In this document: piece by piece, positions 39,380 through 64,000 of the stretch
How the letters are laid out: every line of letters starts with the position of its first letter
How positions within the stretch are numbered: the first letter of the stretch is position 1
Source: a candidate division Kazan bacterium GW2011_GWA1_50_15
GTDB taxonomy: Bacteria > Patescibacteriota > Kazan-3B-28
Reading direction: 5' to 3'
Assembly (NCBI GenBank): GCA_001029795.1
Contig: CP011216.1
Coordinates: 279,128-343,127, forward strand
Length of the DNA stretch: 64,000 nucleotides
Program-made: the position numbers and the translations under genes
Notes under the pieces: generated by a model
Database searches by the model: none
What the model was told of the DNA's origin: nothing
What the model saw: only the letters and a program-made list of their open reading frames with translations

Positions 39380-39783
39380 GGCAGTTGCAGTTCCTGGCCA
39401 ACCGATAGACTATAAGGCGCCTCAAGATGGTTGAGAACGGCCAGATCCTTCCAATCCAACTCTAGAGCGGCAGCAATCCCTGCTAGCGTGTCGCCCTCCC
39501 GGACAGTGTAAGTCCCCGTACTTTGCAGTTTGAGAGTGGACTGATTACCGGCCGAGTCCGTAGCTGTATCGTCTGGATTGGTTGTTACATCGAACTGGTA
39601 TGTACCAGGATTAATCACCCCGATCGGCTTAATGAACATCGTGGCGATCAACCCGCGAAAAGCAAATATTAAAAAGATGGCGCTAAAAAACAACGCGTAC
39701 AGCACGATGATTGAAAATGGGTCCTCCCGAAACCGCTGTTTCAGACGATACCCGTACCGCCGAGTTCTATGCGACATCTCCAT
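39376..39783 (-). CDS. Membrane-anchored LysM domain protein
   Basis: 135 aa; N-terminal TM and a C-terminal LysM (YTVREGDTLAGIAAALELDWKDLAVLNHL...VGQELQLP). Confidence 0.75.
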   Translation of the reverse strand: MEMSHRTRRYGYRLKQRFREDPFSIIVLYALFFSAIFLIFAFRGLIATMFIKPIGVINPGTYQFDVTTNPDDTATDSAGNQSTLKLQSTGTYTVREGDTLAGIAAALELDWKDLAVLNHLEAPYSLSVGQELQLP

Positions 39784-39804
39784 AGGTATATTTTACTATC
39801 TTCT

Positions 39805-48296: not shown

Positions 48297-49419
48297 CTGT
48301 CCAATTGAATTGGCGAGCGCGTAATCTACCGCGTTCGATCAGCCGCTGGCGCAAGATCGGATCGTTTATAATCGTTCGCATATGCTCGGCCAAACCGGCC
48401 ACGTCTGTTGGGGCGATGGTGAGCGCAGCATCTCCCGCCACTTCGGGCAGAGCCGAGACATCGCTGGTAATGACCGGGCAGCCGCTAGCAAAAGCCTCTA
48501 GCACCATTAGGCCGAAACCTTCGTAAAACGAGGGGAAGACCAACGCTGTGGCTGAAGCCAACAGAGCGATCTTTTCAGCCTCACTGACTTGCCCGGTAAA
48601 GACTATCCGTGTCTGCAAACCCAGATCTTGCACAAGTTGATAAAGGTCTGACGAAAGCCAACTTTTACTGCCAGATACTACCAGATTTATTGTATCAGAA
48701 TAACGCTGCTGCAGTTCGTGCATAGCTCGGACTATCAACTGCAGATTTTTACGAGGTTCGACACTGCCGACGTAGTAGAAATAGCGTGCTGGGACCTGGA
48801 ACTTCTCTTGCACTAATGTGACTTGCTGGGGCGTGGGCGGGACAAAATACTCTTCGCCTACTCCTTCATAGACACGAACTATCTTGCCCTCTGGCACGTG
48901 CAATAGACGGACCAGATCTTGTTTAGTAGATTCAGATACAGCAATGACCCTATCCGAGGTGCGCGCCTCGTAAGGATAATTCATCTGCCATTGCCAGATA
49001 CGGGATGAGAGCGGGTAGAACTGGGGGTAGATATAAAATATTAGATCATGAAAGGTCGTTACCTTAGCGCATCGTCTCGAGAGTGGCAGCAACATAGGCG
49101 AAGGCATCCACATGACGTTAAGTCCCCCGCAAACAACGTCTGCCTTGGGCCAATCCAATGGCTTAAAGACCGCGTGCAAGAGGATAGGAAAGTTCACCCA
49201 GCGCAATTTTTTTACCTCCACATTGGCAGCCCGCAGATAGGGCTGCTCGGCCAACAGTTTATCAAGGCGTTGGTCGATATCCTTGTACGATACATAGAAC
49301 AGTACATATGTATTGCGAGTATCGATAGCTAACAAGTGGCGCAAGAGCTGCAGAGTGTACTGTTCAACTCCGCTGATCTTGCCAGTCAGTAAGCCTCTGA
49401 TATCGACTCCGATGCGCAT
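48238..49419 (-). CDS. Glycosyltransferase family 4 (GT-B); start placed at MRIGVDIRG
   Basis: YYVGSVEPRKNL...SFYEGFGLMVLEAFASGCPVITSDVSALPEVAGDAA. The track ORF (to 49491) would overlap the upstream GT4 gene by 62 nt. Confidence 0.8.
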   Translation of the reverse strand: MRIGVDIRGLLTGKISGVEQYTLQLLRHLLAIDTRNTYVLFYVSYKDIDQRLDKLLAEQPYLRAANVEVKKLRWVNFPILLHAVFKPLDWPKADVVCGGLNVMWMPSPMLLPLSRRCAKVTTFHDLIFYIYPQFYPLSSRIWQWQMNYPYEARTSDRVIAVSESTKQDLVRLLHVPEGKIVRVYEGVGEEYFVPPTPQQVTLVQEKFQVPARYFYYVGSVEPRKNLQLIVRAMHELQQRYSDTINLVVSGSKSWLSSDLYQLVQDLGLQTRIVFTGQVSEAEKIALLASATALVFPSFYEGFGLMVLEAFASGCPVITSDVSALPEVAGDAALTIAPTDVAGLAEHMRTIINDPILRQRLIERGRLRARQFNWTDAAHQTLAVIEQAAHAKGD

Positions 49420-49429
49420 ACGTGGTGAA

Positions 49430-50584
49430 TTATGAATTAGGGGTTGGGGCTGACAGTCGGGACAGATGTTCGGCCCATTGGGTTTCGACAAATTCCCGTA
49501 TCTGCCGTTGGAAGTGAGCCTGGTCGAATTGCTCGGCGTGAGCCCGGATTATGGATGGCGAGAAACTCACTAGCTCGAACCGACGGACAGCGTCCGCTAA
49601 CGAGCCTGGGGACTGTTCAGAGAAGAAGATGCCGGTCTGGCCTTCTACTACAGTTTCCAGCGCCCCGCCCGCTCGGTAGGCTATCACTGGCTTACCGGCG
49701 GCCATGGCCTCCAGGGGGACAATACCGAAGTCCTCTTCCTGCGGGAACAACACAGCCTTGCATCGCAGAAACTGCTGGGCGGTCTCTTCGTCTGACAACC
49801 GACCCAAAAATTCAGTCTTGGGAGAGCGGGCTAGTTTTTTGAGGCGGGCTATCTCCGGCCCTTCGCCGATAATCTTCAGCGGCAGTCCCAATCCATTGAA
49901 TGCCTGCACCGCGATATCGGTGCGCTTGTATCCGATCTGCCGGCCGACTACGAGATAAAAATCACCGGGGGTACTTTCACCTTGGAATCTAGCAAAGTCT
50001 ACCGGCGGGTAGATAACCGTGGATTCGCGCTCATAGTATTTTTTTATCCGTCCGGCAGTATTTTTTGAGTTAGCTACGAATACGTCCACTCGGTCAGCGG
50101 CAACTCGGTCCCAGATGCGTAAGCGATGCACCAGCGAGGGCATAGCCAATTTTATTAATGGGTCTAGAACCCCTAACTGCTTTTGGCGCAGATATTCATG
50201 GTAGTGACTCCAATAGTAGCGAGTGGGGGTGTGACAGTAGCAGATATGAAGGGTTTCTGGCTTAGTCAAAATCCCCTTAGCCTCGGCGTGGGCCGAGGAG
50301 GTCACTAGGTCGTAGCCGTCTAGGTTAAACGATTCGAACACGGCCGGCCGAATGGCCGGAAAGAGTTGCTGTTTGTAGCGGAGGGGTGACTTTTGCAGAT
50401 AACTCGTAATGACCCGCCGGCCGCGGAGCTCCGGAAAGGCCTCGGCCTTAAACACTGATGTAAAGATATCGGCCCTAGGGAAAATTTCGGCAAAGTTTAA
50501 AATGACGCGTTCGGCCCCGCCTCGACTGGTCAGCCAGTCGGCCACGATCGCTACCCTTAATTCGTCAAATTGTTTCATCCCCAT
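49430..50584 (-). CDS. Glycosyltransferase family 4 (GT-B)
   Basis: 384 aa; EDFGIVPLEAMAAGKPVIAYRAGGALETV with the E-x7-E motif. Confidence 0.8.
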   Translation of the reverse strand: MGMKQFDELRVAIVADWLTSRGGAERVILNFAEIFPRADIFTSVFKAEAFPELRGRRVITSYLQKSPLRYKQQLFPAIRPAVFESFNLDGYDLVTSSAHAEAKGILTKPETLHICYCHTPTRYYWSHYHEYLRQKQLGVLDPLIKLAMPSLVHRLRIWDRVAADRVDVFVANSKNTAGRIKKYYERESTVIYPPVDFARFQGESTPGDFYLVVGRQIGYKRTDIAVQAFNGLGLPLKIIGEGPEIARLKKLARSPKTEFLGRLSDEETAQQFLRCKAVLFPQEEDFGIVPLEAMAAGKPVIAYRAGGALETVVEGQTGIFFSEQSPGSLADAVRRFELVSFSPSIIRAHAEQFDQAHFQRQIREFVETQWAEHLSRLSAPTPNS

Positions 50585-50621
50585 TCTCCATCATTCATGA
50601 TTCATCATTCATAATTCGTGC

Positions 50622-52001
50622 TTAATAGCTCCCCTTCCGGGTTAAGACCGCGCCGATGGTCTGCAGGATAATTTTAATATCAAGAAGTGGCGACCAGTGT
50701 TCAATGTAGAAAGTATCGAGCCCCACATACTCGTCGAACGAGATATCGCTCCGACCGGAGACCTGCCACGGGCCGGTCAGACCGGGCTTAACCAATAACC
50801 GGCGGCGGGCGGCATCACTATACTCTGCCACTTCGTTGGGTAGCGCCGGCCGGGGACCGACCAAGCTCATCTCGCCTTTCAACACATTAAACAACTGGGG
50901 CAGTTCATCTAAGCTGGTTTTACGAATAAACTTACCCACGCGGGTTATCCGCGGGTCATCTTTGAGTTTAAATAACGGGCCATCCGCCTCGTTGCGTTCC
51001 CTAAGTTCCTCCAGCATCCGCTCGGCCCGCTCGCCTCCCAGCCCCGGACTCATCTCGCTGTACATCGATCGAAACTTATAAAAAGTGAACGGTTCGCCCA
51101 ATTCGCCAATCCGCTTCTGGGCATAGATCACTGGGCCTTTCGAATCCAGTTTAATAGCAACAGCGACCACCGCCATTACCGGCAGAGCCACGACCATTCC
51201 GATACATGTAGCCCCGATATCAAATAAACGCTTTGCTACCCTCCCCCAGCCAGAGAGCGGAGTAGGTGAAAGTTCGATAATGGGATAGCCTACCAATGTG
51301 TCCACCGTGATGTGGGAGGTGTAGAGACCAGTCAAGCTTGGCACATACTGCAGAGTCACATCGTGGTCCTCACACCAGCGAATGAATTTTAACATCTGTT
51401 CGCCGGTAAGTTCATGGCCGATAATGACGCGATCAGGCCGATGCTGGGCCAAGACCGAGAGGTCCAGCTCGGCCATCACTCCAACTAGTTTCTGCCCCGG
51501 CTGCGCGGATCTGACTTGGCCGCCCAAATCATCAGCCATCTTCCCGCTAGCGATCAGGGCAACTCGCTCAACACCAGTGCCGGCGTACTGCAGCCACTGT
51601 TTGAAGTAGTTGACTATGGCTCGGCCTAGAAGTACGAACACTACACTAAACACCCAGAAGTAGGTCACGATCAGGCGCGAGAAGAAACTGGTCTTGGCGA
51701 TAAATAAACCGATAACAAAAACGGCCAATGCCACCGAAGTGGCGATCAAGACCTTCCCGGCCAGCTCCCAAGGGTTCCTAAACCCGCGGAATCGGTACAA
51801 CCCAAACCCAAAGAACGACACTAGCCAGAGAGGGGCCAACTCCATCACCAACCGGAGGTAGTCCGGAAATGGCAGAATATAGATGATAGGCACAAATTGC
51901 CACTGGAGCCGGAGCCAGTAGGCGCCAACAAAAGTCAGTACCACCATGACATAATCGAGCGGTACCAATAGCAGGGTGAAAAATTGATTGAATCGTCTCA
52001 T
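50622..52001 (-). CDS. Polyprenyl-phosphate sugar phosphotransferase (WbaP/PssY-type bacterial sugar transferase); start placed at MRRFNQ to clear tRNA-Val
   Basis: C-terminal catalytic domain ...YKFRSM...DELPQLFNVLKGEMSLVGPRP...KPGLTGPWQVSGRSD. The track ORF (to 52073) overlaps the tRNA. Confidence 0.85.
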   Translation of the reverse strand: MRRFNQFFTLLLVPLDYVMVVLTFVGAYWLRLQWQFVPIIYILPFPDYLRLVMELAPLWLVSFFGFGLYRFRGFRNPWELAGKVLIATSVALAVFVIGLFIAKTSFFSRLIVTYFWVFSVVFVLLGRAIVNYFKQWLQYAGTGVERVALIASGKMADDLGGQVRSAQPGQKLVGVMAELDLSVLAQHRPDRVIIGHELTGEQMLKFIRWCEDHDVTLQYVPSLTGLYTSHITVDTLVGYPIIELSPTPLSGWGRVAKRLFDIGATCIGMVVALPVMAVVAVAIKLDSKGPVIYAQKRIGELGEPFTFYKFRSMYSEMSPGLGGERAERMLEELRERNEADGPLFKLKDDPRITRVGKFIRKTSLDELPQLFNVLKGEMSLVGPRPALPNEVAEYSDAARRRLLVKPGLTGPWQVSGRSDISFDEYVGLDTFYIEHWSPLLDIKIILQTIGAVLTRKGSY

Positions 52002-52028
52002 AAAATCTAAGCCCCCAGACCGGCTCTC

Positions 52029-52105
52029 TGGTGGGCTCGCCCAGATTCGAACTGGGGACCTTCCCCACGTCAAGGGAACGCTCTAACCAACTGAGCTACG
52101 AGCCC
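52029..52105 (-). tRNA. tRNA-Val (anticodon GAC)
   Basis: Acceptor GGGCUCG/CGAGCCC, D-arm GCUCAGUUGGUUAGAGC, anticodon loop UUGACGU, T-loop UUCGAAU, CCA encoded. Confidence 0.85.
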
Positions 52106-52120
52106 CGAACAGGGCTTATT

Positions 52121-52756
52121 TTACTGGGATTCGCCCAACACTTCAAGGATGCGCGCCCGGACCGTCTCCAGGGCATCCTGGAGAGCGTCGCGGCTGCCGT
52201 TGTTGTTGATGATCAAGTCGGCTTCATCTTTACCCGGTTCGACATACTTATCGTGCATCGGCTGGGCCGAAGTCAGGTACTGATTCAACGATTCTTGGAA
52301 ACTCCGGTCGCGTTCGCCCACATCCCGTTCCAGCCGGCGGGCTAGTCGGATATCGCCATCTACTTCCACAAACAGGGTCAGATCCAAGAGGTTAGCCACC
52401 CGCTTGTCGGTCAGGATAAGGATTCCCTCTACAATAATGACTGGTTTAGGTTCAACATACACGGTCATTGGTTTGCGAGTGTGGGTCTCAAAGTCGTACT
52501 GGGGCATGTTGATGGGCCGGCCGGCCTTTAGATCGGTCAGATGCTCAAAAAACAACTCCTCGTCGATGGCTTGGGGTTCGTCATAGTTTAAGTCCTTGCG
52601 ACTCTCAAGTGGGATATTGCCGCGGTCTTTATAGTAGTTGTCGTGCGAAAAGATGAGGACTTTGGCCGGATCGGACTTCTGCAATTCTTGGGCGATGTAG
52701 GTTTTGCCTGAGCCAGTGCCACCGGCGATACCGATCAAAAAAGGTGATTTTTCCAT
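52121..52756 (-). CDS. udk: Uridine kinase
   Basis: 211 aa; P-loop GIAGGTGSGKT, then LIFSHDNYYKD...YDEPQAID...VIIVEGIL. Confidence 0.8.
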   Translation of the reverse strand: MEKSPFLIGIAGGTGSGKTYIAQELQKSDPAKVLIFSHDNYYKDRGNIPLESRKDLNYDEPQAIDEELFFEHLTDLKAGRPINMPQYDFETHTRKPMTVYVEPKPVIIVEGILILTDKRVANLLDLTLFVEVDGDIRLARRLERDVGERDRSFQESLNQYLTSAQPMHDKYVEPGKDEADLIINNNGSRDALQDALETVRARILEVLGESQ

Positions 52757-52813: not shown

Positions 52814-53352
52814 CTGCTCTTTGCCAGTGTGCGATTGCCTCTCCCCAGTTTTGGGGAAGGGAGGAAAGTCCGGACACCACCCTGGAACAGAAAAGTCGCT
52901 AACGGCGACCCCTCGATGTATTTCGGGGAGGGAAAGTGTCACAGAGACAATACTAAACTTTCTTGAGAGGCATCTTATGGTTTTCTCTTAGCAGGGAAGG
53001 AGAGCAGCGAGCTTGTCCTAACTCTGTCAGGATGGGCTTTTGCCCACGAGTGTCGAGAGGAAACCGTAGGTTGCCTCTCGAGATTGTTAAAAGGTGAAAA
53101 GCGGTAGGGTGTTGAAATGTTGGAAAGCGGGCCAATCCCGCCAACCGGCCTCCAAGCTACCTACCGGGCTCCGTCGCGAGACGGATGTTCTGGTAAACCC
53201 TTTTCGGTGCAAGTTGGGCTGGACCGTTCATATCAATTGGTTTGTTCCGGGCAAGGTATGAAGGGGCCCCAACGCTTGATCCTGTCAGCAATGGCAGGGC
53301 TAGATAGATAATCGCTAAAACAGAATCCGGCTTACAGCTGGCAAAGAGCATT
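52814..53352 (+). ncRNA. rnpB: RNase P RNA (bacterial type A-like) with ~150 nt of extra sequence in the specificity domain
   Basis: P4 5' strand GGAGGAAAGUCCGG (52850-52870) and P4 3' strand ACAGAAUCCGGCUUA (53320-53335). P1 gcucuuugccag/cuggcaaagagc closes the molecule. A GGUGAAAAGCGGUAGGG block follows the repeat. The track ORFs across it look spurious. Confidence 0.8.
52990..53095. repeat. Copy B of the ~95-nt hairpin-rich structured repeat, embedded inside rnpB
   Basis: aggagagcagcgagcttg-[tcct..agga]-[gggc tttt gccc]-acgagtgtcgagagg-loop-cctctcgagattgttaaaa. It is collinear with 28020-28120 and carries paired (compensatory) substitutions in every stem. Confidence 0.7.
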
Positions 53353-54038: not shown

Positions 54039-54058
54039 TCCGCTCGCAGAGCGGTTTT
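54039..54058 (+). terminator. Plus-strand terminator-like hairpin in the divergent spacer upstream of the large lipoprotein gene
   Basis: ccgctc-gca-gagcgg followed by ttttt; a TGGACA-17-TATGGT promoter-like sequence follows at ~54066-54094. Confidence 0.35.
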
Positions 54059-54130
54059 TGGGTGGACAGGCACCTCGTTTTATGCTATGGTGAGCGTGGT
54101 TCTTTGATAATTTAATCTCTCAAAAAGGAT

Positions 54131-56569
54131 GTGGTAAAAATGAGGTTTGCCCTCTTGGTAGTCATTCTTTTGGTGGGCTGCCAGAGTGGCGGCCCCAAAG
54201 TTGCCGGTGCGCCATCGAAAATTGTCGATGGTGATTTGGTCGCCTCGCTCACCCAGCAGTTCTGGGCGGAGCGGGAGAGAATCATCTCTGGCGGCATCCA
54301 ACCGCCACCGGGAGCCGACCAAGTAACTGATTTGGTTTGTGACGGCACAACTCTGACTTGGTCCTATGTTAATCTTGGTGACTACAACCAAGACGGCGAG
54401 GCAGGTATCGCCGACCTTACTTCCATCGCCCTGCATTTTGGGCACAAGCAGGATCCGGCATTCCCGGACTTGCTGGACGAGGTCATCGACGGCGATAAAA
54501 GTACAGAGGTCGGCGTTTCTGACATTACTCCTATCGCTCTGAACTATTTGGCGACCGTTGCCAGATATTCCATACAGGGGGCTAACGCTCCCGATGGAAG
54601 TTTTGGCGAGGTCGGCAGTATCAGCCGTTCGGCCGGCAGTGGGTTAGGTCGGTTGCAGTTTGTAGCCGAACTCCCTGTTACCGAACTGTTGTTCTTCCGG
54701 ATAGTTCCGGTCGACGGTGGCGGCTCGCTCGGAGCCCCGTCCAATGTAGTGGCGGGACCGAACGCTAGGCCAGTCATTACTACGATCTATGTGGAGCCGA
54801 CCGAGACCTACACCGGCCAGCCGGTCACTTTCTCAGCTGAAGTTAGCGGCACAGAGCCGTTCTTCTACGGCTGGGATTTTGCCGGAGCAACTAATCCTCT
54901 GTCCTCCGCCGAAACCTCCCCTACGGTCACCATTACCGCCGGGGTCGGTATCTACAATGCTACCCTCACAGTCGCCAACGAATATGGCGAAAGCGAGTTC
55001 GGATTTCCCATTGATGTGCGGATGCCCGTCCCGCCTGACATTGTTGAAATTATACCGACATCGGGCGTGGCAGGGACACAGATAACATTCCAGGCCACCA
55101 TAACGGGTGAACCAGCCCCCGCTTATGCGTGGGATTTTGGTGGAGCGGCTATCCCTAATATCTCTGCGGATATATTCCCAACCGTAACCCTGTCCGCGAC
55201 CGACGATTATACGGTGTCACTCACGGTTACCAATTTGGCCGGAGAGGGTAGCTTACAATTGCCGTTCGTCGTCGTTCCCCCGCCACAGCCGCCGGTCATT
55301 TCCGGCGTGACAGCGCCGAACGGTATTGTTGGCACCAACGCAAGTTTCAGCGCGACGGTGAGCGGCGACGAACCCCTCACCTACGCTTGGGATTTTGGTG
55401 GCGGCGGGCTACCCAATACCTCCGCTGACACTGACCCGGTTATAACTTGCGAGACGGTCGGCAATTTCAACTGCCATCTTGAGGTTAGTAACGCGGTTGG
55501 CACGGATGGATATAATTTCTTCTGGGAAGTCCGTGGGGGGACTTGGAATGCGGTGTCTTTAGGAGCGATCGGACGCGGCACCGCACCGATCATTGCCTAC
55601 GGTTACCCGGCCGTGGCCTACACTGATGGGCAAACCACCGAAGTCAAATTCGTTCGAGCAACCGATCCATTCGGCGACGCTTGGGGAACAGCTACCACCG
55701 TCGCCAATTGGGGCAGTGGTCTGTCGGCTGTGGCGGTTAACGGTCATCCAGCCATTGCTTTCTACGCTGATGATGCTTTGCATTATATTAGGGCGTTGGA
55801 TGCGGAGGGCAGTAGTTGGCCACTCACCGACATTGTCGTTGACAGCGGCGGTTGGCTATTATTGCCTTCACTCATAGTCGTCAATGGCAATCCGGCCGTG
55901 GCGTATTATGACTACGCCAATGAGCGAGTCAAATACGCTCGAGCCGCTGACGGTGACGGTGACACTTGGGGTTCACCCCAAGTCATCGACGATGGGCTTG
56001 GTATCTACGGCGGCCAACCGACGCTGGCAATGGTTAATGGCCAGCCAGCCATCGCCTACGCCGATTACACTGCGGGGGTGCTACAGTTCGTGCGCTCGAT
56101 TGACGCGTACGGCGACAACTGGAACGCTCCCCTCGCACTGGACGGTGAGGGCTACTCTCCTCGCATCGCCACAGTGAACGGCCAGCCAGCCGTTAGTTAC
56201 ATTACCGGTAGCGGAGCATTGAAACTCATCCGCTCGATCGATGTGGATGGACAGAACTGGGGTCCATCGACCGAAGTGGTGGCGGCTCCCGGCGGCGAGT
56301 GGGTGTTGGGCAAGCACTCACTAGCTATTATCGCCGGCCGGCCGGCCATTGCCTACGCCATGAACACGACCGGAACCCCGCAGGAACGGGATATTCGGTA
56401 CATCCGGGCGTCAAACACCGAGGGCACCGACTGGAGCGAAACAGCAAGTCAGCTGTGGCCGCTTGGTGGATTTGAGCCGGGATTGGCCAGTATCGGCGGC
56501 CGGCCAATGGTCACTTTTTCCATCCCCGGGCCGGGAGTCGAACCCTTGTTCGTCGCGCACCTCGAATAA
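54131..56569 (+). CDS. Large surface lipoprotein: dockerin-like Ca-binding repeats + 3-4 PKD-like domains + C-terminal BNR/Asp-box beta-propeller
   Basis: 812 aa; lipobox LLVGC. Dockerin-like GDYNQDGEAGIADLTSIAL and DGDKSTEVGVSDITPIAL. Three ~85-aa repeats carry WDFGG/YAWDFGG (PKD signature). The C-terminal half has 6-7 repeats of NGxPAxAY...IR..D..G..W (DGDGDTWGSP, DAYGDNWNAP, DVDGQNWGPS). Confidence 0.7.
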   Translation: MVKMRFALLVVILLVGCQSGGPKVAGAPSKIVDGDLVASLTQQFWAERERIISGGIQPPPGADQVTDLVCDGTTLTWSYVNLGDYNQDGEAGIADLTSIALHFGHKQDPAFPDLLDEVIDGDKSTEVGVSDITPIALNYLATVARYSIQGANAPDGSFGEVGSISRSAGSGLGRLQFVAELPVTELLFFRIVPVDGGGSLGAPSNVVAGPNARPVITTIYVEPTETYTGQPVTFSAEVSGTEPFFYGWDFAGATNPLSSAETSPTVTITAGVGIYNATLTVANEYGESEFGFPIDVRMPVPPDIVEIIPTSGVAGTQITFQATITGEPAPAYAWDFGGAAIPNISADIFPTVTLSATDDYTVSLTVTNLAGEGSLQLPFVVVPPPQPPVISGVTAPNGIVGTNASFSATVSGDEPLTYAWDFGGGGLPNTSADTDPVITCETVGNFNCHLEVSNAVGTDGYNFFWEVRGGTWNAVSLGAIGRGTAPIIAYGYPAVAYTDGQTTEVKFVRATDPFGDAWGTATTVANWGSGLSAVAVNGHPAIAFYADDALHYIRALDAEGSSWPLTDIVVDSGGWLLLPSLIVVNGNPAVAYYDYANERVKYARAADGDGDTWGSPQVIDDGLGIYGGQPTLAMVNGQPAIAYADYTAGVLQFVRSIDAYGDNWNAPLALDGEGYSPRIATVNGQPAVSYITGSGALKLIRSIDVDGQNWGPSTEVVAAPGGEWVLGKHSLAIIAGRPAIAYAMNTTGTPQERDIRYIRASNTEGTDWSETASQLWPLGGFEPGLASIGGRPMVTFSIPGPGVEPLFVAHLE

Positions 56570-56572
56570 CTT

Positions 56573-56616
56573 AAAACCGTCCCGCCATCACTTGTGTATG
56601 GCGGGACGGTTTTTTC
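56573..56616. terminator. Bidirectional rho-independent terminator between convergent surface-protein genes
   Basis: aaaa-ccgtcccgcca-tcacttgtgta-tggcgggacgg-tttttt. Confidence 0.75.
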
Positions 56617-56635
56617 TTGTGAACAACTTGAAATT

Positions 56636-59600
56636 TTAAATAATGGTGATAGTCAGGGTACCACTGTAGTCGCCCACCGTGCGGGACTCGAGATCAGCTA
56701 GGTCAATGGTCGGTAAGAAATAGAAACCGCCCTTGCCGTTGATATAGGTACTACCCGGACCGGTATAGGCGTTCCTGTCAGCATCCAGCGTGGCGCCAGT
56801 TTGGCCGGTCATATCGGTTTTGCTGGATGCGAATGAGCCGTTTAATACTGTAGTCGTTGATTTCCAAGTAATGTCGGTACCGGGGATGGTGTCGCCGCCA
56901 CCGCTTTTCGGCATCGACATTGAGCCGACCGATACAGTGTAACTGGTTTGATTGCCTCGTTTATCCCAGAAGACAAATTCCTCGCCAGCCTCGAAGGGAT
57001 AACTTAGTGTCCCCCCACCGCCCTTGGTGTAAGCCCCTAAATAAACATCGGCCGGGGCGGTAGCCATCTCCAGATCGGTGGCCGCCGAGGTGGTCAGCGC
57101 TGGATAACTATTGTTCGAATCCTTTGACACTGTCGCCCAACTGCCACCGGCCGCGGCGCTGTTTTCCATATATTGCAGACGGAAATAATAGGTAGTACCG
57201 GGCGCGACTATCACGCCGGGATTACGTTGGATAGTAAACTCGTGTTCGTAGTTGGTCGAGGCCGCCGGGTCAAAGGTACTTCCCGACCCAGCCCCGGTGC
57301 CGGAATCCTCATTGTGCCGCCCGGCCGTGGGCGAGTTGTTAGTCAGCCGGACATTGACGATGGCGTCGTCATCGGTCACGTTGGCTCCATTGTAGTAGCG
57401 CCAGGCTACCGTGTTCCCGCCCTGCGCCTCGACATCGGTGGCACCAGTAAAGCTGGTTGAGGTATCGAACTGGAGTTTGTATTTCACATCCGTCGCACCC
57501 ACGCCGTTGGCTTCGCCCACCACAACCCGTAGTTTGATGGCATTCCCCGGGTAAACAATGCGAGTGCTGCTGGGTGGGGTGCTGGTCGAATCATTGTCTT
57601 CATCGCTCAAGGCATCTCCGGTTGTCGTCTCGCCGCCATTAGTGGTATTGGGGTCGGCCACATCTTCGGCGTCGAACCAACGCCAGTTTTTGGAGCCGGG
57701 TTTGTAGGGCTTGCTTTTAGCGATGACCGTGTCAACATAGGTCGGTAAATTATCAGTGTCGGCAATGGTGACCGGCGCGCTGTGTGTATGGTCGTCCACC
57801 GCTATAGTCACGCCGGGCGGCGGGGCGGGCATATCGAAACCGGCCGATGACGAAGCGCCCCCGGTCGTAATATCGGAAACCGTGTGGCTATGCGAACTAG
57901 CCCCGCCCGAGCCGTCGGCGGTATACGATGATTGAGCCTCTAGATACCGGCGGTTGAAAGTCTGCGAGCTGCCGGAACTTACCGTCCAAGCGCTCCCGGG
58001 GTCGGCCGTGAACATCGCTACCAGATTAGCCGGGATAGCACCCGTGCTATCCTTTTTGCCCATGATCACCTCAACATGAATCGGTACATGGTTACCGGTG
58101 GTCGAAGTGCCGCTACCGGTATGATTATGGGCGGCGGCGGCTCCAGTAAAAGGCGGTCCGGTTGTACCGCCCACGGCACCGCCGGATGTGACTGTGCCAC
58201 CAGTGAGCGTGATGTCGTGATCGTGGGCAGTGTTTGACCCGCCGGTGGTTTCCCCATCCGGCCCGCCCCGAACAAAAGTATTATCCTGTGCCGAGTATCG
58301 TGTCCAGCCAGTTGGGACAGTAGCATCGAACATGGCAATGATGTTTTGCGGTAGCGTGCTGGGCATCCCGCTGTCGTACTGGACTACCTGTAATTCGCGG
58401 TAAGACGGTAACAAACTCTTAGATGAGGCTGTGGCACTCCAACTGTGCGTGTGTTGATCGCCGGCCACTGTGGTGCCCGATTGGGAGATGCTCAAAGACA
58501 AATTGTCAGTAATCGTCCCTGGCGTGGCGGTGGGGGTATGGGTATCGGCTCCGCCCCACGGACCGTAAGCTGAATTGCCTCGCGGGAATTTTTGGTAAAA
58601 GATATCGGTCGCGTCATTGGAAACCGAGCTCCACCCCGCTGGCATCGTGATCAATGTCCCATCCCAAAACAACATCATTCTAACCTCGGCGATATCCAGA
58701 GCCGACGTGTCGGTGAAATTGACTCCCAGCATATCGGCGTTGGCGCTATCATACCAGGTAGCAAATATCTTATACGGCGTAACGCTCCCGGCTCGAACAT
58801 AGATATAGTTGCCAGCGGAACTGCTGACCGGTCCCTGCTCGCTCCCCCAGGTTGAGCCGCCAGTGGTGGATTTTTTGTAATAGACACTCATCGAGCTGGC
58901 TACCGTACCGCGCAAATAAAAGGCGTAAAGATCGCCATTCTGCTGGTCGATGGCCACAGCGCCACCAAGTCCGGCAGTACCGATGTCGGTGTAGACATTT
59001 GTGTTGGTACTCCAACTCCTACCCGACTCGTCGTACCAATAGGTTTCAATGTCCCCGCCACTAGTGGCCGGATCGTTATTGCCCACCACATAGATGTCGC
59101 CGGTATTTTTGTTTAGTGCCCCGCCCCAGGCCACATCGTAGGTGGTGTGATAGGCAAAACTACTATCGATGGTGGTCCAACTCCCGTCCCAGGTTGGCGC
59201 GCTAGCATCGTAGACCATCGAGACTAGATCGGTGGCGCTGGTATCGTGAACCACTATCATCACATCTCCGCCAGACAGCGGGAAGATCTGCCCGTGGTCG
59301 ATGCCGCCAGCCATAGAAAAGCCGGTATCGCTCCAACTACTGCCACCAACGTCGGCTGCCGAGTAAACTTTGTAGCTGGCCGTGGCATCGCCCCAGAACC
59401 ACAGTGCATACAATTTGTTGTCGGTAGACTTGATAATCGAGGGCGATCCGCCCGAGGCATAGACCATGTCAACCGTGTTGTCGCCTATCTTGGTCCAGGT
59501 CGTGCCGGTGGGTGAGAGAGTGTCGCTAGCAGTATCTAGCCGCTTGAAATAGACATCGTCATCGTTCGTACCCGCCGTTTCGTGGGCCACCATATAGATA

Positions 59601-59974
59601 TAAGTGCCGCTGGTGTCCCCCGGCGTCCACTGGTCGTACCAGACGGCAATGTCCATCCAATCTTGGTCAGTCCCTAGCTCCACCTCTCCGCCCCAACTGG
59701 CGCCACTATTGGTGGTTTTTTTGTAAGCGGGCGTATCGGTGGTGTCATCAATATAAAAAGCGTAGCCGGTAGTATCGGACACCCAGACCACCGATGGGCT
59801 GGGACCGTACTGGCCAGTCAGATTGAATAGATCGCCGTTGATGGTGATTTGGGTGGCTTGGGCTGGCAGGACATTGAATCGCAGAGGGGCGAATTGAAAC
59901 CCGCCAAACACCATAACTACCGTCAAGACAACGGTCATCAATCGCCCGATTGTACCTATCCATCTCCTCTTCAT
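56636..59974 (-). CDS. Giant secreted protein: N-terminal BNR/Asp-box beta-propeller, central Gly/Thr-rich region with repeated His-x-His motifs, C-terminal Ig/FN3-like beta domains
   Basis: 1112 aa; signal peptide. Asp-boxes TTNSGASWGG, SAADVGGSSWSD, STTGGSTWGS. HxH repeats AHDHDITLTGG, AAHNHTGSG, NHVPIHVEV, SSHSHTVSD, DDHTHSAPV. Confidence 0.7.
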   Translation of the reverse strand: MKRRWIGTIGRLMTVVLTVVMVFGGFQFAPLRFNVLPAQATQITINGDLFNLTGQYGPSPSVVWVSDTTGYAFYIDDTTDTPAYKKTTNSGASWGGEVELGTDQDWMDIAVWYDQWTPGDTSGTYIYMVAHETAGTNDDDVYFKRLDTASDTLSPTGTTWTKIGDNTVDMVYASGGSPSIIKSTDNKLYALWFWGDATASYKVYSAADVGGSSWSDTGFSMAGGIDHGQIFPLSGGDVMIVVHDTSATDLVSMVYDASAPTWDGSWTTIDSSFAYHTTYDVAWGGALNKNTGDIYVVGNNDPATSGGDIETYWYDESGRSWSTNTNVYTDIGTAGLGGAVAIDQQNGDLYAFYLRGTVASSMSVYYKKSTTGGSTWGSEQGPVSSSAGNYIYVRAGSVTPYKIFATWYDSANADMLGVNFTDTSALDIAEVRMMLFWDGTLITMPAGWSSVSNDATDIFYQKFPRGNSAYGPWGGADTHTPTATPGTITDNLSLSISQSGTTVAGDQHTHSWSATASSKSLLPSYRELQVVQYDSGMPSTLPQNIIAMFDATVPTGWTRYSAQDNTFVRGGPDGETTGGSNTAHDHDITLTGGTVTSGGAVGGTTGPPFTGAAAAHNHTGSGTSTTGNHVPIHVEVIMGKKDSTGAIPANLVAMFTADPGSAWTVSSGSSQTFNRRYLEAQSSYTADGSGGASSHSHTVSDITTGGASSSAGFDMPAPPPGVTIAVDDHTHSAPVTIADTDNLPTYVDTVIAKSKPYKPGSKNWRWFDAEDVADPNTTNGGETTTGDALSDEDNDSTSTPPSSTRIVYPGNAIKLRVVVGEANGVGATDVKYKLQFDTSTSFTGATDVEAQGGNTVAWRYYNGANVTDDDAIVNVRLTNNSPTAGRHNEDSGTGAGSGSTFDPAASTNYEHEFTIQRNPGVIVAPGTTYYFRLQYMENSAAAGGSWATVSKDSNNSYPALTTSAATDLEMATAPADVYLGAYTKGGGGTLSYPFEAGEEFVFWDKRGNQTSYTVSVGSMSMPKSGGGDTIPGTDITWKSTTTVLNGSFASSKTDMTGQTGATLDADRNAYTGPGSTYINGKGGFYFLPTIDLADLESRTVGDYSGTLTITII

Positions 59975-60039
59975 GCTAAATATTTATGCTTATTGCCTGA
60001 GTCCGCCAGCCGGCGGATCGAAGGCCTACCACAACTTAT

Positions 60040-60064
60040 CACTTGTCACTTGTCACTTGTCACT
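60040..60064. repeat. Heptamer tandem repeat (CACTTGT)x3.5
   Basis: cacttgtcacttgtcacttgtcact in the spacer between 60074-61294 and the giant protein gene. Confidence 0.8.
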
Positions 60065-60073
60065 ATCTGCCAT

Positions 60074-61294
60074 TCACTTCCTCCCTCCCGGCCGATACAG
60101 CGAAGTTCTGCCAGAAACTAGATACCGCCACCATGCCGGCATGGGTTCGCGTCGTCGTTTTTCGGATAATTCACTCGGCGACAACAACCCCACCGGAATA
60201 AACAACTTATCTCCTGCGTTAATGGCGTGCGGCCAAGTTAACTGATTAAACCGGATCAGCTGTTGCGGCAGAACATTGGTATGCTCCGCAATGTGCATTA
60301 CCGTCTCGCCTTTTTGGACAGTGTGCGTAATTGTCTTCAGGCGATACTTCCGTCGGTCCAGCCACCACACCCACCAGCGGTACTTCAGCCAAGCCAGCCC
60401 CAACCCTAAGAGCCACCAGCCAAGATATTTGGTTCCCACCCAAAAGCTAAATTTATATTCGAACCGTTCGTCCGGCAATTTTTTGACCGTACCGTCTAGT
60501 TGCACTTCGTCCACTGTCCAAGTGTGAGCTACAACCGCAATCCGGTAGTAGCCGAATTTGGGCGCTGGTCTATCCCACACTTTGGTAATGTTCATCACAC
60601 TCCCCGGCAGATAGGTACCATTCTCATTCATCTCTTCGGTACGACTGCCGAATATGCCCTGCAGTTTAATATCCAGCGCTGGCTCAATGTTGATATTGCT
60701 CTCGTTCTTGGCGGTGATGTTAAAAGTTAGTCCGCTTTTGTCAATTTTGTAATCAACTTTATCAAAACTAAGTTTGCGGGTTATCTCCCCCGGCACGGTG
60801 ATATATACCCGAGCCCCGACTCGGATCTGGAAATTGATGTTGCCGCCGGCTTGACCGCCCGCTCTTTCATAAATCACAATCCCACCACTGTGCTGACCCG
60901 GCCCGGTGTCCCCCGGCACGGTAATAGTAAAGGGGACCTCGGCGCTGGTATTCGGCGCCAGTATCAAGTTAGTTTGCTCTAATTTAATCCAGCTCCCCAC
61001 CTCCCGATTATCGGCGGCGGTTTTCACCAGTGTATATCCGCCCTCGGTGGTATTGACGGCATCAAGCGCTTCCACAACCACGGATTTAGTTCTGGGAGAA
61101 TTATTATTAATAACTAATGTGTCGGTCGTACTCTCTCCCGGCCGGAGAGTATGGACAAACCAACTCCGGGGTGGCTGGCCCTCCACTGGCTTAGGGATAA
61201 CCCCCACCCCACCGGTTTGGGCCAACGCAAAAATTGGCAGCCACCATGCTGCCAAAACTGCCGACAGAGCCATTCCGATCACAGGTTTAGTCAT
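60074..61294 (-). CDS. Surface protein paralog 1: signal peptide - ~300-aa beta-rich domain (DUF916-like) - TM helix - one C-terminal LysM
   Basis: 406 aa; SP MALSAVLAAWWLPIFALAQT, ...PRSWFVHTLRPGESTTDTLVINNNS..., TM WWLLGLGLAWLKYRWWVWW, LysM HTVQKGETVMHIAEHTNVLPQQLIRFNQL...GDKLFIPV. Confidence 0.65.
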   Translation of the reverse strand: MTKPVIGMALSAVLAAWWLPIFALAQTGGVGVIPKPVEGQPPRSWFVHTLRPGESTTDTLVINNNSPRTKSVVVEALDAVNTTEGGYTLVKTAADNREVGSWIKLEQTNLILAPNTSAEVPFTITVPGDTGPGQHSGGIVIYERAGGQAGGNINFQIRVGARVYITVPGEITRKLSFDKVDYKIDKSGLTFNITAKNESNINIEPALDIKLQGIFGSRTEEMNENGTYLPGSVMNITKVWDRPAPKFGYYRIAVVAHTWTVDEVQLDGTVKKLPDERFEYKFSFWVGTKYLGWWLLGLGLAWLKYRWWVWWLDRRKYRLKTITHTVQKGETVMHIAEHTNVLPQQLIRFNQLTWPHAINAGDKLFIPVGLLSPSELSEKRRREPMPAWWRYLVSGRTSLYRPGGRK

Positions 61295-62769
61295 CGCTTC
61301 CGTTGGCGCTTATTGGATTTGGGCGGGATTTTAATTTGCTGGCCCGGCCGCAACTTATACGGCGGCTTAATTCTGTTGTATTCGGCCAGCGCGGTCATCG
61401 GCACACCGGCAAAATCAGCTACATCCCCTAAAGTGTCTCCAGTTTCAGCGATTAATACCGTGGGCTTAGCTGAACCCCCGGAACGACCGGGTTTGCCTAG
61501 TGTATCCACCATCGCATGGGATGTGCGCCGACGGAAGAGGTGCCCAACAATACTCAACGCAAATTCCTTATCCGAGAACATCTCCCGCTGTTTGACGGTC
61601 CATTCGGCCCCGCGATGATATCCAATCGGCACCAACAGTACATCCCCAGTTTTAAGTTCGTAAGGCCATTTCAGCAGATTGAACTTAGCCAATACCCGCG
61701 CATCCACTCCCAATTTGTTAGCCACCTTCATCAAGGTATCGCCGCTGACCACTTTGTACATCTCGGTCTTCACCCGCAAGCGCCGCATAATAATGGTGTA
61801 CAGCCACACCGATCGGATAAGATAGAGCACCAGTACGACCAGCAGAATGGTCATCAGCTCGCGCCACGGCCAGAGCCAGAAAATGTAGGTTTGCTTAATA
61901 ATCTCATCCGGCAACATTGTCTTGGTGCCGTCTTTGTTAAACTGCTCCTTCTCGCCCGTGTGGATGTCGAACTCAGCTTTGAATCTCCCAAAATAAGCTG
62001 CCCGCTTCATCCATTTTACATCCACATTCTTGGTCTCACCGCGGGAGACGGCGGTGGTCTGAACGGCCTCTTGTTTACCGACACTACCAAATATCCCCCG
62101 TATGGTGGTATCAATGATTGGAGCGATGGCTACGTTGCCATGGTTAGAGACATTAAAGGTAAGGAATAGCGCTCGCCGATTGCCGTAGTCAATCCGGTGA
62201 GTGATTTTATTGATCTGCAGATCGCGATTGATCTCACCCGGCACATTTACTACTAGCATTGCACCGATATGCACTCGCACCTTTACTCCTCCACCCTTGG
62301 TCTCGCTCGGCGGGGACTTTTCTTGGATGAAGATACCGCCGACATGCTCCCCTACATTGGCAGTTGATGGAATTTTTAAAGTCAGCCCGATCTGAACCGC
62401 GCTATGGGGGGCTAGGGACACTTCACTACGGTCCAACTCTAGCCAATAGCCCGGCTCGGGTTTTTCTGGCGTGTCGGCTCCGGCTTTGACAATATTATCT
62501 TCCTCATCAACCGTATAGCCGGACGGGAAGATCAGGACGGTGGCGGCCTCGTCTTTATTGTTATTAATGATCATCTGGTCTCGCACCTCGGTGCCTTCAG
62601 CCGCGGTATAGATGAACCAACTTCTGGCCTTACCTTCTTTGTCTGGTACCGGAAAGATGGACAGCCCACCTACACCCAAAGCGTTGGCTGATGACGCACC
62701 CACAAACAGGCCCAAATTCAGGGCCAATAGCCACCAACCGAATTTCTGCTTCAATCGTAAACCGGCCAT
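61291..62769 (-). CDS. Surface protein paralog 2: signal peptide - DUF916-like domain - TM helix - two C-terminal LysM domains
   Basis: 492 aa; same architecture as 60074-61294 (ARSWFIYTAAEGTEVRDQMIINNNK...), TM LMTILLVVLVLYLI, LysM1 YKVVSGDTLMKVANKLGVD, LysM2 VLIAETGDTLGDVADFAGV. Confidence 0.65.
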   Translation of the reverse strand: MAGLRLKQKFGWWLLALNLGLFVGASSANALGVGGLSIFPVPDKEGKARSWFIYTAAEGTEVRDQMIINNNKDEAATVLIFPSGYTVDEEDNIVKAGADTPEKPEPGYWLELDRSEVSLAPHSAVQIGLTLKIPSTANVGEHVGGIFIQEKSPPSETKGGGVKVRVHIGAMLVVNVPGEINRDLQINKITHRIDYGNRRALFLTFNVSNHGNVAIAPIIDTTIRGIFGSVGKQEAVQTTAVSRGETKNVDVKWMKRAAYFGRFKAEFDIHTGEKEQFNKDGTKTMLPDEIIKQTYIFWLWPWRELMTILLVVLVLYLIRSVWLYTIIMRRLRVKTEMYKVVSGDTLMKVANKLGVDARVLAKFNLLKWPYELKTGDVLLVPIGYHRGAEWTVKQREMFSDKEFALSIVGHLFRRRTSHAMVDTLGKPGRSGGSAKPTVLIAETGDTLGDVADFAGVPMTALAEYNRIKPPYKLRPGQQIKIPPKSNKRQRKR

Positions 62770-62822: not shown

Positions 62823-63989
62823 TCAAGATGATACTTTGCGCCAGACCACGGCCAGCGCGTCACTGTAGACCGCCTCCCAGCCACCACTGTCATTCAGATA
62901 TTTATTCAGCGGTCGCCCGCTGCCGGTGAAGACAGTATCAACCTGCCATTTTGCCAATGTCACCAATGAGGTTTCGGCGTCATTGATATTACTGATGTTT
63001 TTGAACTCATCAAAGATTTTAACTGTAGGTGTCGTCCAGATGGCCATGCGCCCGTCAATGAATACTTGCCTCTCCGGCAACTGCCAGACCAAATAGCCGC
63101 CCCAATTGTATTCGTTGTACATCCGCTCTCCTCCGGGATGCTCTTTCAGATACTGGACAGCGTCATAAGGGTAGCCGTAGGATCGGCCATACACCGCCGG
63201 ATCAAACATCACCGGCGAAAGTCGCGCCCACTGCCATGCCCCCACTCCACCGACCACCAGCACCAGTCCCAGTACCCCGACCGTGGTCTGGAGGAGCTTT
63301 GGCATACCGTGCCTGAGCACCCCGTCCAGTTGTTCGGCCAAAAGCGGCATCGCGGCGATCGCGAAAAGGGGCAGATGGCGCCAAGCGGTTGTACTGATAA
63401 AAAATACCGTAATGGCCAACACCAGCTTGGTCAGATCGAACTTCCAATGATTCGCCCATAGCAACCCCAGCAACAGAATAACTACTAGTACTACATTGTA
63501 ACTACCGACATTGGTCAAACTCAGCGGTAGCCATTCGGAGATATTGGCCAATACATCTTTGTCGGTGAAGGTCTGCCATAGCTCCAGATAGACCCGCCAG
63601 CCATTGGGGTTAAATAAAGTAGCTACCACACTCACGATCGCCACCCCGGCCAATTGCCACAGTTGGCGCCAATTGAGTAGTTCGACAGATAAACGGGTTG
63701 GCTTTTTACCCCGTAAGATGTGCCGCAGTACCTCTCCCGCCCAGAAAATTCCGATAATCAAAAAGCCGGCCGAGAATCCGCCGTGCAGGTTTGCCCATGC
63801 TGCAAAAATTAGCGGGAGCCAGTAAATTAATTTACTGACGGGTTGGCGGCGCCAAGTGAACAGAAGATAGAGTACCCCTACCAACCCCAACAAGGTGAAC
63901 ATTTGCGGCCGCACCCCCACCACGAACCACGACACCAAGAATCCAGCCAGTGCGACAATAATTCGAATTAGCGGCGAGGTCTTCACCAC
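62823..63989 (-). CDS. Polytopic membrane protein, GT-C-like (PMT/ArnT/DUF2079-type) glycosyltransferase candidate; N-terminus may continue beyond the window
   Basis: 388 aa (in window); 8+ TM helices then a soluble C-terminal domain (YGYPYDAVQYLKEHPGGERMYNEYNWGGYLVW). Confidence 0.55.
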   Translation of the reverse strand: MVKTSPLIRIIVALAGFLVSWFVVGVRPQMFTLLGLVGVLYLLFTWRRQPVSKLIYWLPLIFAAWANLHGGFSAGFLIIGIFWAGEVLRHILRGKKPTRLSVELLNWRQLWQLAGVAIVSVVATLFNPNGWRVYLELWQTFTDKDVLANISEWLPLSLTNVGSYNVVLVVILLLGLLWANHWKFDLTKLVLAITVFFISTTAWRHLPLFAIAAMPLLAEQLDGVLRHGMPKLLQTTVGVLGLVLVVGGVGAWQWARLSPVMFDPAVYGRSYGYPYDAVQYLKEHPGGERMYNEYNWGGYLVWQLPERQVFIDGRMAIWTTPTVKIFDEFKNISNINDAETSLVTLAKWQVDTVFTGSGRPLNKYLNDSGGWEAVYSDALAVVWRKVSS

Positions 63990-64000
63990 ACCGGCCGCCA

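Follow-up and report, generated by a model that had tools for sequence, protein, structure and literature searches.

Proteins that carry a WxL domain are reported to be more than 91% Firmicute, and 99% of those come from Bacilli (PMC9772566). Hassan et al. (2023; PMC10599100) define a WxL cluster by the presence, within four genes, of one or more WxL-interacting proteins (WxLIP) and two or more WxL proteins, usually a small and a large one, and they propose that the WxLIP completes the WxL sandwich with a donated strand. Such clusters, also called Csc, were first proposed, for L. plantarum, to act as carbohydrate-utilisation complexes (PMC1534035). Attachment in the candidate phyla radiation (CPR, or Patescibacteria) is largely uncharted beyond a few cultured Saccharibacteria, and the Kazan group is without a cultured member. 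Here we describe a block of four genes (A to D, positions 54131-62769) in a 64,000-nucleotide stretch of DNA, called the window below, from candidate division Kazan bacterium GW2011_GWA1_50_15, a CPR genome bin with a contig of about 0.6 Mb. Genes B, C and D, together with a truncated gene for a membrane protein (M497), form the downstream half of an operon-like cassette that is conserved in the Kazan clade of CPR. This cassette is probably a relative of the WxL/WxLIP systems, one that displays variable binding heads at the wall without covalent linkage.

The cassette resembles the WxL (Csc) clusters of Lactobacillales and Bacillales in bringing three protein classes (small WxL, large WxL and WxLIP) together in one cluster. 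In both, the WxLIP has a signal peptide, two immunoglobulin (Ig)-like domains and one transmembrane (TM) helix, the small protein is essentially a WxL-type domain alone, and the large protein joins a C-terminal WxL-type domain to variable N-terminal binding domains. The two differ in phylum, which is CPR here and not Firmicutes, and in the shape of the WxLIP: the published protein (DUF916-DUF3324-TM helix) ends at the TM helix, whereas the Kazan WxLIP is extended by one or two LysM domains and a polybasic tail. LysM goes unmentioned in both WxL papers (PMC10599100, PMC9772566). Further differences are that a GT-C membrane glycosyltransferase and M497 are fixed members of the cluster in the Kazan clade, that the called genes of the loci include no LPXTG protein (no search was aimed at LPXTG), and that the Kazan proteins have degenerate forms of the literal W-x-L motifs and leave the Pfam HBD model unmatched. 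The Kazan locus falls under the published cluster definition only if WxL-like domains are counted as WxL.

NCBI annotation already names individual proteins of the cassette 'WxL domain-containing' or 'LysM'. The cassette itself, its triple-repeat module and the topological puzzle set by its LysM domains are new, in that they are not described in the literature searched, and our search turned up no publication that connects CPR with WxL or tail-collar domains. An earlier reading of the window from its letters alone (the sequence-only reading) had proposed a dedicated cell-surface attachment module and hinted at a reduced-genome lineage. The general idea holds, now as a WxL/WxLIP-type cassette; the genome is CPR, and the four large secreted or anchored open reading frames (ORFs) lie where that reading placed them. 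The identities of the WxL anchor, the WxLIP fold and the phage tail-fibre-like triple repeat were absent from it. The cassette would extend the WxL system well beyond Bacilli, and it turns 'hypothetical proteins' into a defined set of five components with a solved structural homolog, the E. faecium WxLIP, for its core.

To map the cassette, contigs encoding orthologs of B and D were looked up, and one genome per species was also scanned with the D-family alignment, which yielded 12 loci; their labels read Kazan, Patescibacteria, "Saccharibacteria" or just bacterium. With metagenome-derived loci included, 18 loci were mapped with local hidden Markov models (HMMs), 17 of them related to the window locus. 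Besides the window locus, about 16 others of the Kazan clade have the cassette, which is collinear and on a single strand in every locus with enough flanking DNA. It runs from one or two small WxL-like genes (about 195-215 aa) through a PMT_2/TMEM260-like GT-C gene, M497 and one or two WxLIP-TM-LysM genes to the large protein or proteins, all of which end in a common C-terminal WxL-like domain of about 150 aa. Among the relatives found it is universal and single-copy, and it is set among housekeeping genes. In the Kazan genome, a pair of small WxL-like genes is followed by GT-C, M497, D, C and B, with the small genes outside the window; on the minus strand, M497 and D are separated by 53 nt, D and C overlap by 4 nt, and C and B are 99 nt apart. 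The gene B product is 100% identical to VE98_C0001G0358 of Kazan bacterium GW2011_GWA1_50_15, and the gene order of GCA_001004375.1 matches that of the window. The two small WxL-like genes of the Kazan genome are near-identical and stand in tandem upstream of the GT-C gene (L001 2507-3148 and 3353-3982); two copies were also seen in locus L021 and a single copy in most relatives.

The organisation of the large proteins into anchor and head is clear, and the head position varies between species. In the B type the N-terminal part comprises a BNR propeller, an HxH module and a middle domain. HxH module and middle domain occur without the propeller in L010, L013, L016, L017 and L021, and other heads are found in L007, L020, L023 and L024 and in the second gene of L006. 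Variation of this kind among relatives is what the sequence-only reading had expected of an adhesin locus. Because the anchor is kept while the head is exchanged, the head most likely determines which surface is bound (host cell, glycan or particle).

The ORF next to gene D (62823-63989) had been called GT-C-like in the sequence-only reading. It is the 3' part of the M497 gene, whose full length (L001 5623-7116) has an equivalent, in an unchanged position, in every complete locus examined. The GT-C label found no sequence or profile support: the ORF and M497 matched nothing in Pfam, NCBIfam or PDB, a profile of M497 likewise matched nothing in PDB, and hhalign gave 3.7% against the locus's own PMT_2 GT-C one gene further. 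With its invariant DPDxGWH loop, M497 may yet be a GT-C. The GT-C that Pfam recognises (PMT_2/TMEM260-like) is the gene beyond M497, outside the window, and is present in every complete cassette, a likeness to the three-component GtrA/GtrB/GT-C systems of extracytoplasmic glycosylation and to the PMT/TMEM260 protein O-mannosyltransferases. In more distant relatives (L004, L009 and L010/L011) the likeness goes further, since the large WxL-like gene has a methyltransferase-GtrA-GT2 trio immediately downstream, which would supply the lipid-linked sugar donor to the cassette GT-C. In the Kazan GWA1 genome, in contrast, GtrA and GT2 are not adjacent to the cassette. The constant linkage of the GT-C suggests glycosylation of the Thr/Ser/Gly-rich, Cys-free proteins or of the wall.

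One mapped locus departs from this pattern. In L009/L018 (contig_123241) the large gene is split, with its HxH part and its WxL-like part in different frames, and the upstream small WxL and GT-C genes are missing; this copy of the cassette appears to be decayed or misassembled. The contig is labelled 'uncultured Bacteroidetes bacterium', which is probably wrong for a CPR-type locus.

WxLIP-type proteins and the WxL-like anchor

The products of genes C and D are paralogs with 28% identity, each with a signal peptide, a DUF916/WxLIP_PGBD domain, one TM helix and LysM. The sequence-only reading had described them as tandem paralogs with a DUF916-like ectodomain, one TM helix and one or two LysM domains, and Pfam and, for C, an AlphaFold2 (AF2) model confirm this. 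Their family is WxLIP by sequence homology and by fold. PF06030 was matched by 17 of the 18 family members (best 4.5e-12), and the family profile matches EfmWxLIP1 of E. faecium in PDB at E 6e-7, together with PDB LysM proteins. When the AF2 model of C (pLDDT 81) was compared with PDB by Foldseek, the top three matches were the E. faecium WxLIP structures 9i25_C and 9i1y (E 2e-14), and 9i25_C bears the title 'WxLIP from Enterococcus faecium locus A bound to long WxL'. About 270 columns were aligned on targets of 251-267 residues, with a TM-score on target of 0.61-0.63. Since the WxLIP structures have two domains and the alignment is of this length, both Ig-like domains of C are matched.

The next-best PDB matches of C after WxLIP were the two-Ig-fold chaperones of chaperone-usher systems (CfaA, Caf1M, FimC, DraB), whose donor-strand complementation resembles the strand donation proposed for WxLIP and WxL. 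The resemblance is one of fold only. Unlike the chaperone-usher systems, the cassette has no usher or pilin genes, and C is membrane-anchored instead of being a soluble periplasmic protein.

The single TM helix is followed, in each of the 18 family members, by one or more LysM domains and a tail of strongly basic character, 72-258 residues in total. The C-terminal part has a net charge of +15 to +35 in 17 of the 17 members whose helix was detected by a simple scan, a count that leaves out C because its own W-rich helix falls below the threshold of that scan. The helix is flanked by more positive charge on its C-terminal than on its N-terminal side, except in two members where the sides are equal, and the simple scan found no second hydrophobic segment in family members.

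At the level of sequence profiles, the C terminus of the gene B product is homologous to Pfam-WxL-positive proteins. The C termini of the large proteins aligned with small CPR proteins positive for Pfam WxL at 97.5% in hhalign (E 8e-12, 138 columns), and jackhmmer connects B to the small WxL-like proteins. Searching with a profile built on the C-terminal domains brought up 54 small CPR proteins, 13 of which carry PF13731 and some of which NCBI names 'WxL domain-containing protein'; the small protein of L004 passes the Pfam WxL model with 28.1 bits (cut-off 25), and the C terminus of B aligns weakly to that same part of the model. The homology was measured against Pfam-positive proteins of CPR. 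Firmicute proteins lay beyond the reach of the profile search, a limit set by its word index, and when the WxL-like alignment was used as a profile against PDB, a spurious dynein match was all that came back. Orthologs keep the first motif in the form D-x-R-G...G-W-[TS]-L, and the distal motif is without Trp throughout.

The head of the gene B product

Full-length orthologs of gene B share 38-50% identity with it. The N terminus is a signal or anchor sequence, and local HMMs place after it, in order, a BNR-type propeller, an HxH triple repeat, a middle domain and the WxL-like C-terminal anchor (Table 1). The whole product has no match in Pfam or NCBIfam. GenBank places the start of the gene 12 codons downstream of the mechanical ORF start.

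An Asp-box propeller and an HxH-repeat region had been noted in B by the sequence-only reading. The repeat region stands, and the propeller is a putative one, suggested by its relatives, no direct Pfam or PDB sequence match to a propeller having been obtained. More than 100 proteins share the first ~420 residues of B, and units homologous to residues 35-420 (E 1e-46 to 1e-88), in P0007, P0011, P0016 and P0031 among others, include Pfam BNR_2 matches. Four Asp-box-like motifs stand at aa 87, 152, 206 and 369. This type of propeller also occurs as two or three tandem copies in many proteins of 1200-1600 aa (homologs listed: P0007, P0011, P0014, P0016, P0023 and P0031), and in P0034 it is fused straight to a Pfam-detectable WxL domain (E 9.5e-5).

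The BNR_2 relatives bring up a different function for the cassette, in which the propeller would be a sialidase-like glycosidase and polysaccharide would be captured and degraded for a metabolically poor cell. Such an extracellular complex would be in keeping with the original proposal for csc clusters (PMC1534035), and 'ordinary hydrolases' were what the sequence-only reading had named as the outcome speaking against its own proposal. We nevertheless consider glycan harvesting quite unlikely. No glycoside-hydrolase family was matched in Pfam, NCBIfam or PDB, several relatives without the propeller keep the remainder of the cassette, and the cassette is without a transporter or sugar-catabolic gene. 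The propeller is, moreover, triplicated in tandem in relatives, which by our reasoning fits lectin-like modules better than enzymes.

The middle domain, for which no Pfam match was found, appears from its sequence to be beta-rich. It occurs together with a WxL-like domain in large proteins of L006 (1035 aa), L007 (937 aa), L013, L016 and L017.

The HxH module of B contains five H-x-H motifs and, in repeat 1, one degenerate HTP. Its repeats follow the consensus ..iP.gmIa.FD..pPsGWt..S.....F.RG...Yg.tGG..THTHt...(~25)...HTHt.....nlPpY..v...k, in which His is near-invariant at both H-x-H positions of each repeat. An exhaustive search with residues 425-1112 of B matched 557 representative clusters, most of which align to the HxH block of about 320 aa only, within proteins of up to 6807 aa. 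Among the proteins retrieved, 149 carry the repeat. Arrays of three (151) or of six (5) make up 156 of 162, and the six exceptions are in fragments or in the decayed gene. This preference for three or six repeats, taken with the near-invariant His, gives indirect support to a putative three-fold arrangement with six-His metal sites. The module is widespread and is not covered by Pfam: neither the module nor its single repeats matched a Pfam family (including Collar, PF07484) or a PHROG, single repeats giving only noise in Pfam. DUF7483 was considered as its identity and rejected, because a 1031-aa neighbour of B in L006 matches DUF7483 and is without the HxH3 profile.

By fold, the module comes closest to phage tail proteins. 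Its AF2 model is compact (pLDDT 83, pTM 0.78), and in BFVD it matched Pas28 (E 2e-14) and Pas29 (E 1e-12) of Actinoplanes phage phiAsp2, with a TM-score on query of 0.58; further BFVD matches were a phage tail collar domain protein (E 7.6e-3) and an Aeromonas phage tail fibre (E 0.029). The genes for Pas28 and Pas29 come after a putative major tail protein in the phiAsp2 genome, and the annotation of Pas29 names a possible role in receptor recognition and notes HXHY motifs. Both have three repeats laid out as in the HxH module of B and both fall within a PHROG 'tail protein' family, and Pas28 also matches the PHROG 'tail collar fiber protein'. Weak PDB profile matches of the module were all to tail fibres, namely 9qgo (E 0.028), 7z47 (E 0.11) and 2xgf (T4 gp37, E 1.8).

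In common with phage tail fibres (T4 gp37/gp12, R-pyocin fibres and Pas28/Pas29 of phiAsp2), the module has H-x-H in beta-strands, and its units start with I-x-M-F...P-x-G-W and end with P-P-Y as in phage tail-collar-type proteins. In trimeric phage fibres, H-x-H from three chains builds octahedral Fe sites (PMC11705849). The module differs from these fibres in placing three units in one polypeptide, as do Pas28 and Pas29, instead of using three chains, and in sitting in a secreted cellular protein with a wall anchor. We infer that it would be a single-chain pseudo-trimer of the phage tail-collar/tail-fibre type, with two layers of His that in Kazan B may be one histidine short at the H-T-P of repeat 1. 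By analogy with the phage fibres, the H-x-H motifs of B probably chelate metal ions.

These fold matches might be taken to mean that B is a degenerate tail-fibre gene and the block a prophage remnant, which we hold to be extremely improbable. The block contains no other phage gene, and B carries both a signal sequence and an anchor for the wall. Synteny of the locus extends across the 12 loci from the genome collection, taken from one genome per species, and the metagenome loci, where it lies beside tRNA-synthetase and other core genes, and its GC content of 52-58% is near the window average. A prophage origin was rejected on this genomic context.

The composition of B invites another interpretation. 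Thr, Gly and Ser make up 35% of its residues and Cys is absent, a composition typical of S-layer glycoproteins. B-type proteins could accordingly be abundant, S-layer-like components of a surface coat, held by WxL and WxLIP and O-glycosylated by the GT-C, whose heads vary under antigenic or phage-escape pressure. A cassette that every relative found has in one copy amid housekeeping genes, and that always co-encodes a protein-O-mannosyltransferase-like GT-C, would suit such a coat. On the other hand, wherever they have been characterised, propellers and tail-fibre-type modules serve in binding; no domain of the lattice-forming kind was recognised, and in Firmicutes both the small and the large WxL proteins act as adhesins and not as lattice formers (PMC10599100). 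We think a coat unlikely; it is compatible with the adhesin reading.

Proposed display mechanism

In the reading that we favour, a WxL/WxLIP relative that displays variable heads, C and D would act as WxL-interacting proteins with two Ig-like ectodomains outside and one helix in the membrane. They would capture and stabilise the WxL-like domain of B and those of the small proteins whose genes lie upstream, thereby holding B non-covalently at the wall. B would then project its head outward, so that the BNR-type propeller and the three-fold-repeated tail-fibre-type module could bind the target. The co-inherited GT-C, and possibly M497, would probably glycosylate the displayed proteins or the wall. 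That the target belongs to a host is something we infer rather than read from the genes. The head of B and the ectodomains of C and D are concrete reagents for binding and localisation work, for which the model makes predictions.

Several observations weigh against this reading. Physical interaction of WxLIP and WxL in the cassette is proposed by analogy with PDB 9i25. The C terminus of B scores only 16 bits against Pfam WxL (PF13731; E 0.011-0.012), below the cut-off of 25, the small WxL-like proteins of Kazan have no Pfam match at all, and Kazan B is without both literal Trp-x-Leu motifs, having DKRGNQTSYTV and GDYSGTLTITII in their place. The Pfam HBD model (DUF3324, PF11797) was matched by 0 of 18 members of the C and D family, and the second Ig-like domain is supported by fold only. 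The phage link of the HxH module draws on predicted-structure matches and weak profile scores. Foldseek of the module against PDB gave no match at E <= 0.001, which would be expected if one chain here corresponds to three chains there and is a weak point all the same, and tblastn of the module against 50,697 phage records returned nothing. Finally, the positive-inside rule predicts that the LysM domains and the polybasic tail of C and D lie in the cytoplasm, where the Firmicute model leaves them unexplained.

Bacterial LysM is usually extracytoplasmic and peptidoglycan-binding. One option is that the LysM of C and D is cytoplasmic and has a different ligand. A second is that the helix does not stay in the cell's own membrane, and a third is processing at a conserved FWxxPW motif that precedes the helix. 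Hassan et al. argue that the WxLIP helix does not remain in the membrane of the cell that makes it, and a LysM placed after the helix bears on the question of where the WxLIP helix resides.

The LysM domains and the variable heads can also be combined into a larger proposal, in which the cassette would be the host-recognition apparatus of Kazan-clade episymbionts. Interchangeable heads of the phage receptor-binding kind, each a tail-fibre trimer fused into a single chain with metal-clamped H-x-H layers, would stand on a WxL/WxLIP platform that is coupled through the membrane to LysM, as in no WxL system described so far, the latter serving either as a new cytoplasmic link to the wall-precursor or division machinery or as a grip on the peptidoglycan of the partner. 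We regard this proposal as unlikely.

Gene A and the surrounding genes

Gene A was part of the four-gene module envisaged by the sequence-only reading, and of that module B, C and D belong to a cassette that extends past the window, whereas A is an unrelated, strain-specific neighbour outside it. A, B, C and D do not form one unit, since A is on the opposite strand, is separately signalled and is without a homolog in the 17 related loci, as judged by local HMM mapping. A is convergent with B across a gap of 66 nt, and upstream of it lie a promoter-like site (54063-54091) and a terminator-like hairpin (54040-54054). The product has a lipobox (LLVGC), and PKD (PF00801) was matched in three stretches with 72.1 bits (cut-off 23.5; E 4e-20), so that lipoprotein, PKD repeats and Asp-box-like motifs hold as first described. 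The dockerin-like pair is seen at motif level only: the EF-hand-like loops DYNQDGEAGIAD and DGDKSTEVGVSD are 36 residues apart with a similar helix after each, and no Pfam dockerin or BNR model was matched in gene A even at E<=10. The dockerin identity is a putative one, called on the motif. No direct Pfam or PDB sequence match was found for the propeller of A.

The sequence-only reading had gone further and joined A, B, C and D, the adjacent membrane protein and the polysaccharide locus at 46239-52001 into one attachment machine. All the products concerned are secreted or membrane proteins, and the polysaccharide genes (Bac_transf, two GT4 and DUF4012) are real and adjoin the cassette in the closest relatives, so adjacency is conserved there. 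It is conserved as neighbourhood only: more distant relatives with the cassette have other neighbours, and in the window the two loci are kept apart by RNase P RNA, tRNA-Val and genes for uridine kinase and a PaaX_M-like protein. With A convergent, separately signalled and unique to the Kazan genome, the proposal is largely refuted for A, and as a whole we judge it improbable.

Table 1. Positions of genes, domains and neighbouring features in the window
Feature	Position	Strand	Basis or remark
Gene A	54131-56569	+	ORF, 812 aa
Gene A, EF-hand-like loops (two)	54380-54415, 54488-54523	+	motif level only
Gene A, PKD/Ig domains (three)	about 54764-55510	+	Pfam PF00801
Gene A, putative propeller	55538-56566	+	six Asp-box-like motifs, aa 510-760, spaced 45-58 residues
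Gene B	56636-59974	-	ORF, 1112 aa
Gene B, WxL-like C-terminal wall-anchor domain	56639-57097, aa 960-1112	-	profile homology
Gene B, middle domain	57140-57709, aa 756-945	-	always before the anchor in B-type and several other large cassette proteins
Gene B, HxH3 module, three tandem repeats of ~108 aa	57710-58687, aa 430-755	-	two H-x-H positions per repeat
Gene B, putative BNR_2-type (sialidase-like) beta-propeller head	58703-59839, aa 46-424	-	homology to BNR_2-containing units
Gene C	60074-61294	-	ORF, 406 aa
Gene C, LysM (one)	60194-60325	-	Pfam, 32.9 bits (cut-off 20.9)
Gene C, TM helix (aa 288-317)	60344-60433	-	W-rich, AF2 model
Gene C, second Ig domain	60437-60820	-	fold
Gene C, WxLIP_PGBD	60872-61165	-	Pfam, 33.6 bits (cut-off 27.3)
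Gene D	61291-62769	-	ORF, 492 aa
Gene D, LysM1 / LysM2	61624-61764 / 61324-61464	-	Pfam LysM (PF01476), 68.8 bits (cut-off 20.9); polybasic tail after LysM2
Gene D, TM helix	61789-61857	-	topology scan
Gene D, WxLIP_PGBD	62323-62634	-	Pfam, 24.6 bits, below cut-off 27.3
M497 gene, 3' 388 codons (ORF 62823-63989)	62823-64000, runs off window	-	conserved polytopic membrane protein of ~497 aa
PaaX_M/Cas2-like gene, 162 aa	53428-53916	-	domain match, E 5.6e-15
Bacterial class A RNase P RNA	52819-53350	+	173.6 bits
Uridine kinase gene	52121-52756		between polysaccharide genes and block
tRNA-Val(GAC)	52029-52105	-	overlaps 5' end of Bac_transf ORF

Within the cassette, a promoter and terminator scan was uninformative. 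The 99-nt spacer between C and B (59975-60073, minus strand) contains a short tandem repeat, GTGACAA in three to four copies, upstream of B; it could be a regulatory or a slippage-prone element.

The PaaX_M/Cas2-like gene adjoins the cassette at an equivalent position in two relatives (L007/L008). The RNase P RNA is placed between the cassette and the polysaccharide genes, and its match spans 532 nt on a model of 367 positions, which implies large insertions. The Bac_transf ORF (50622-52073, minus strand) was called mechanically with a TTG start and 483 aa, against 459 aa in GenBank/ENA, and the true start must be downstream because tRNA-Val(GAC) overlaps the called 5' end. A separate small ORF elsewhere in the window (39379-39792, minus strand; at most 138 aa between stops) has a C-terminal LysM and lies beside a tRNA cluster at 39.8-40.9 kb.

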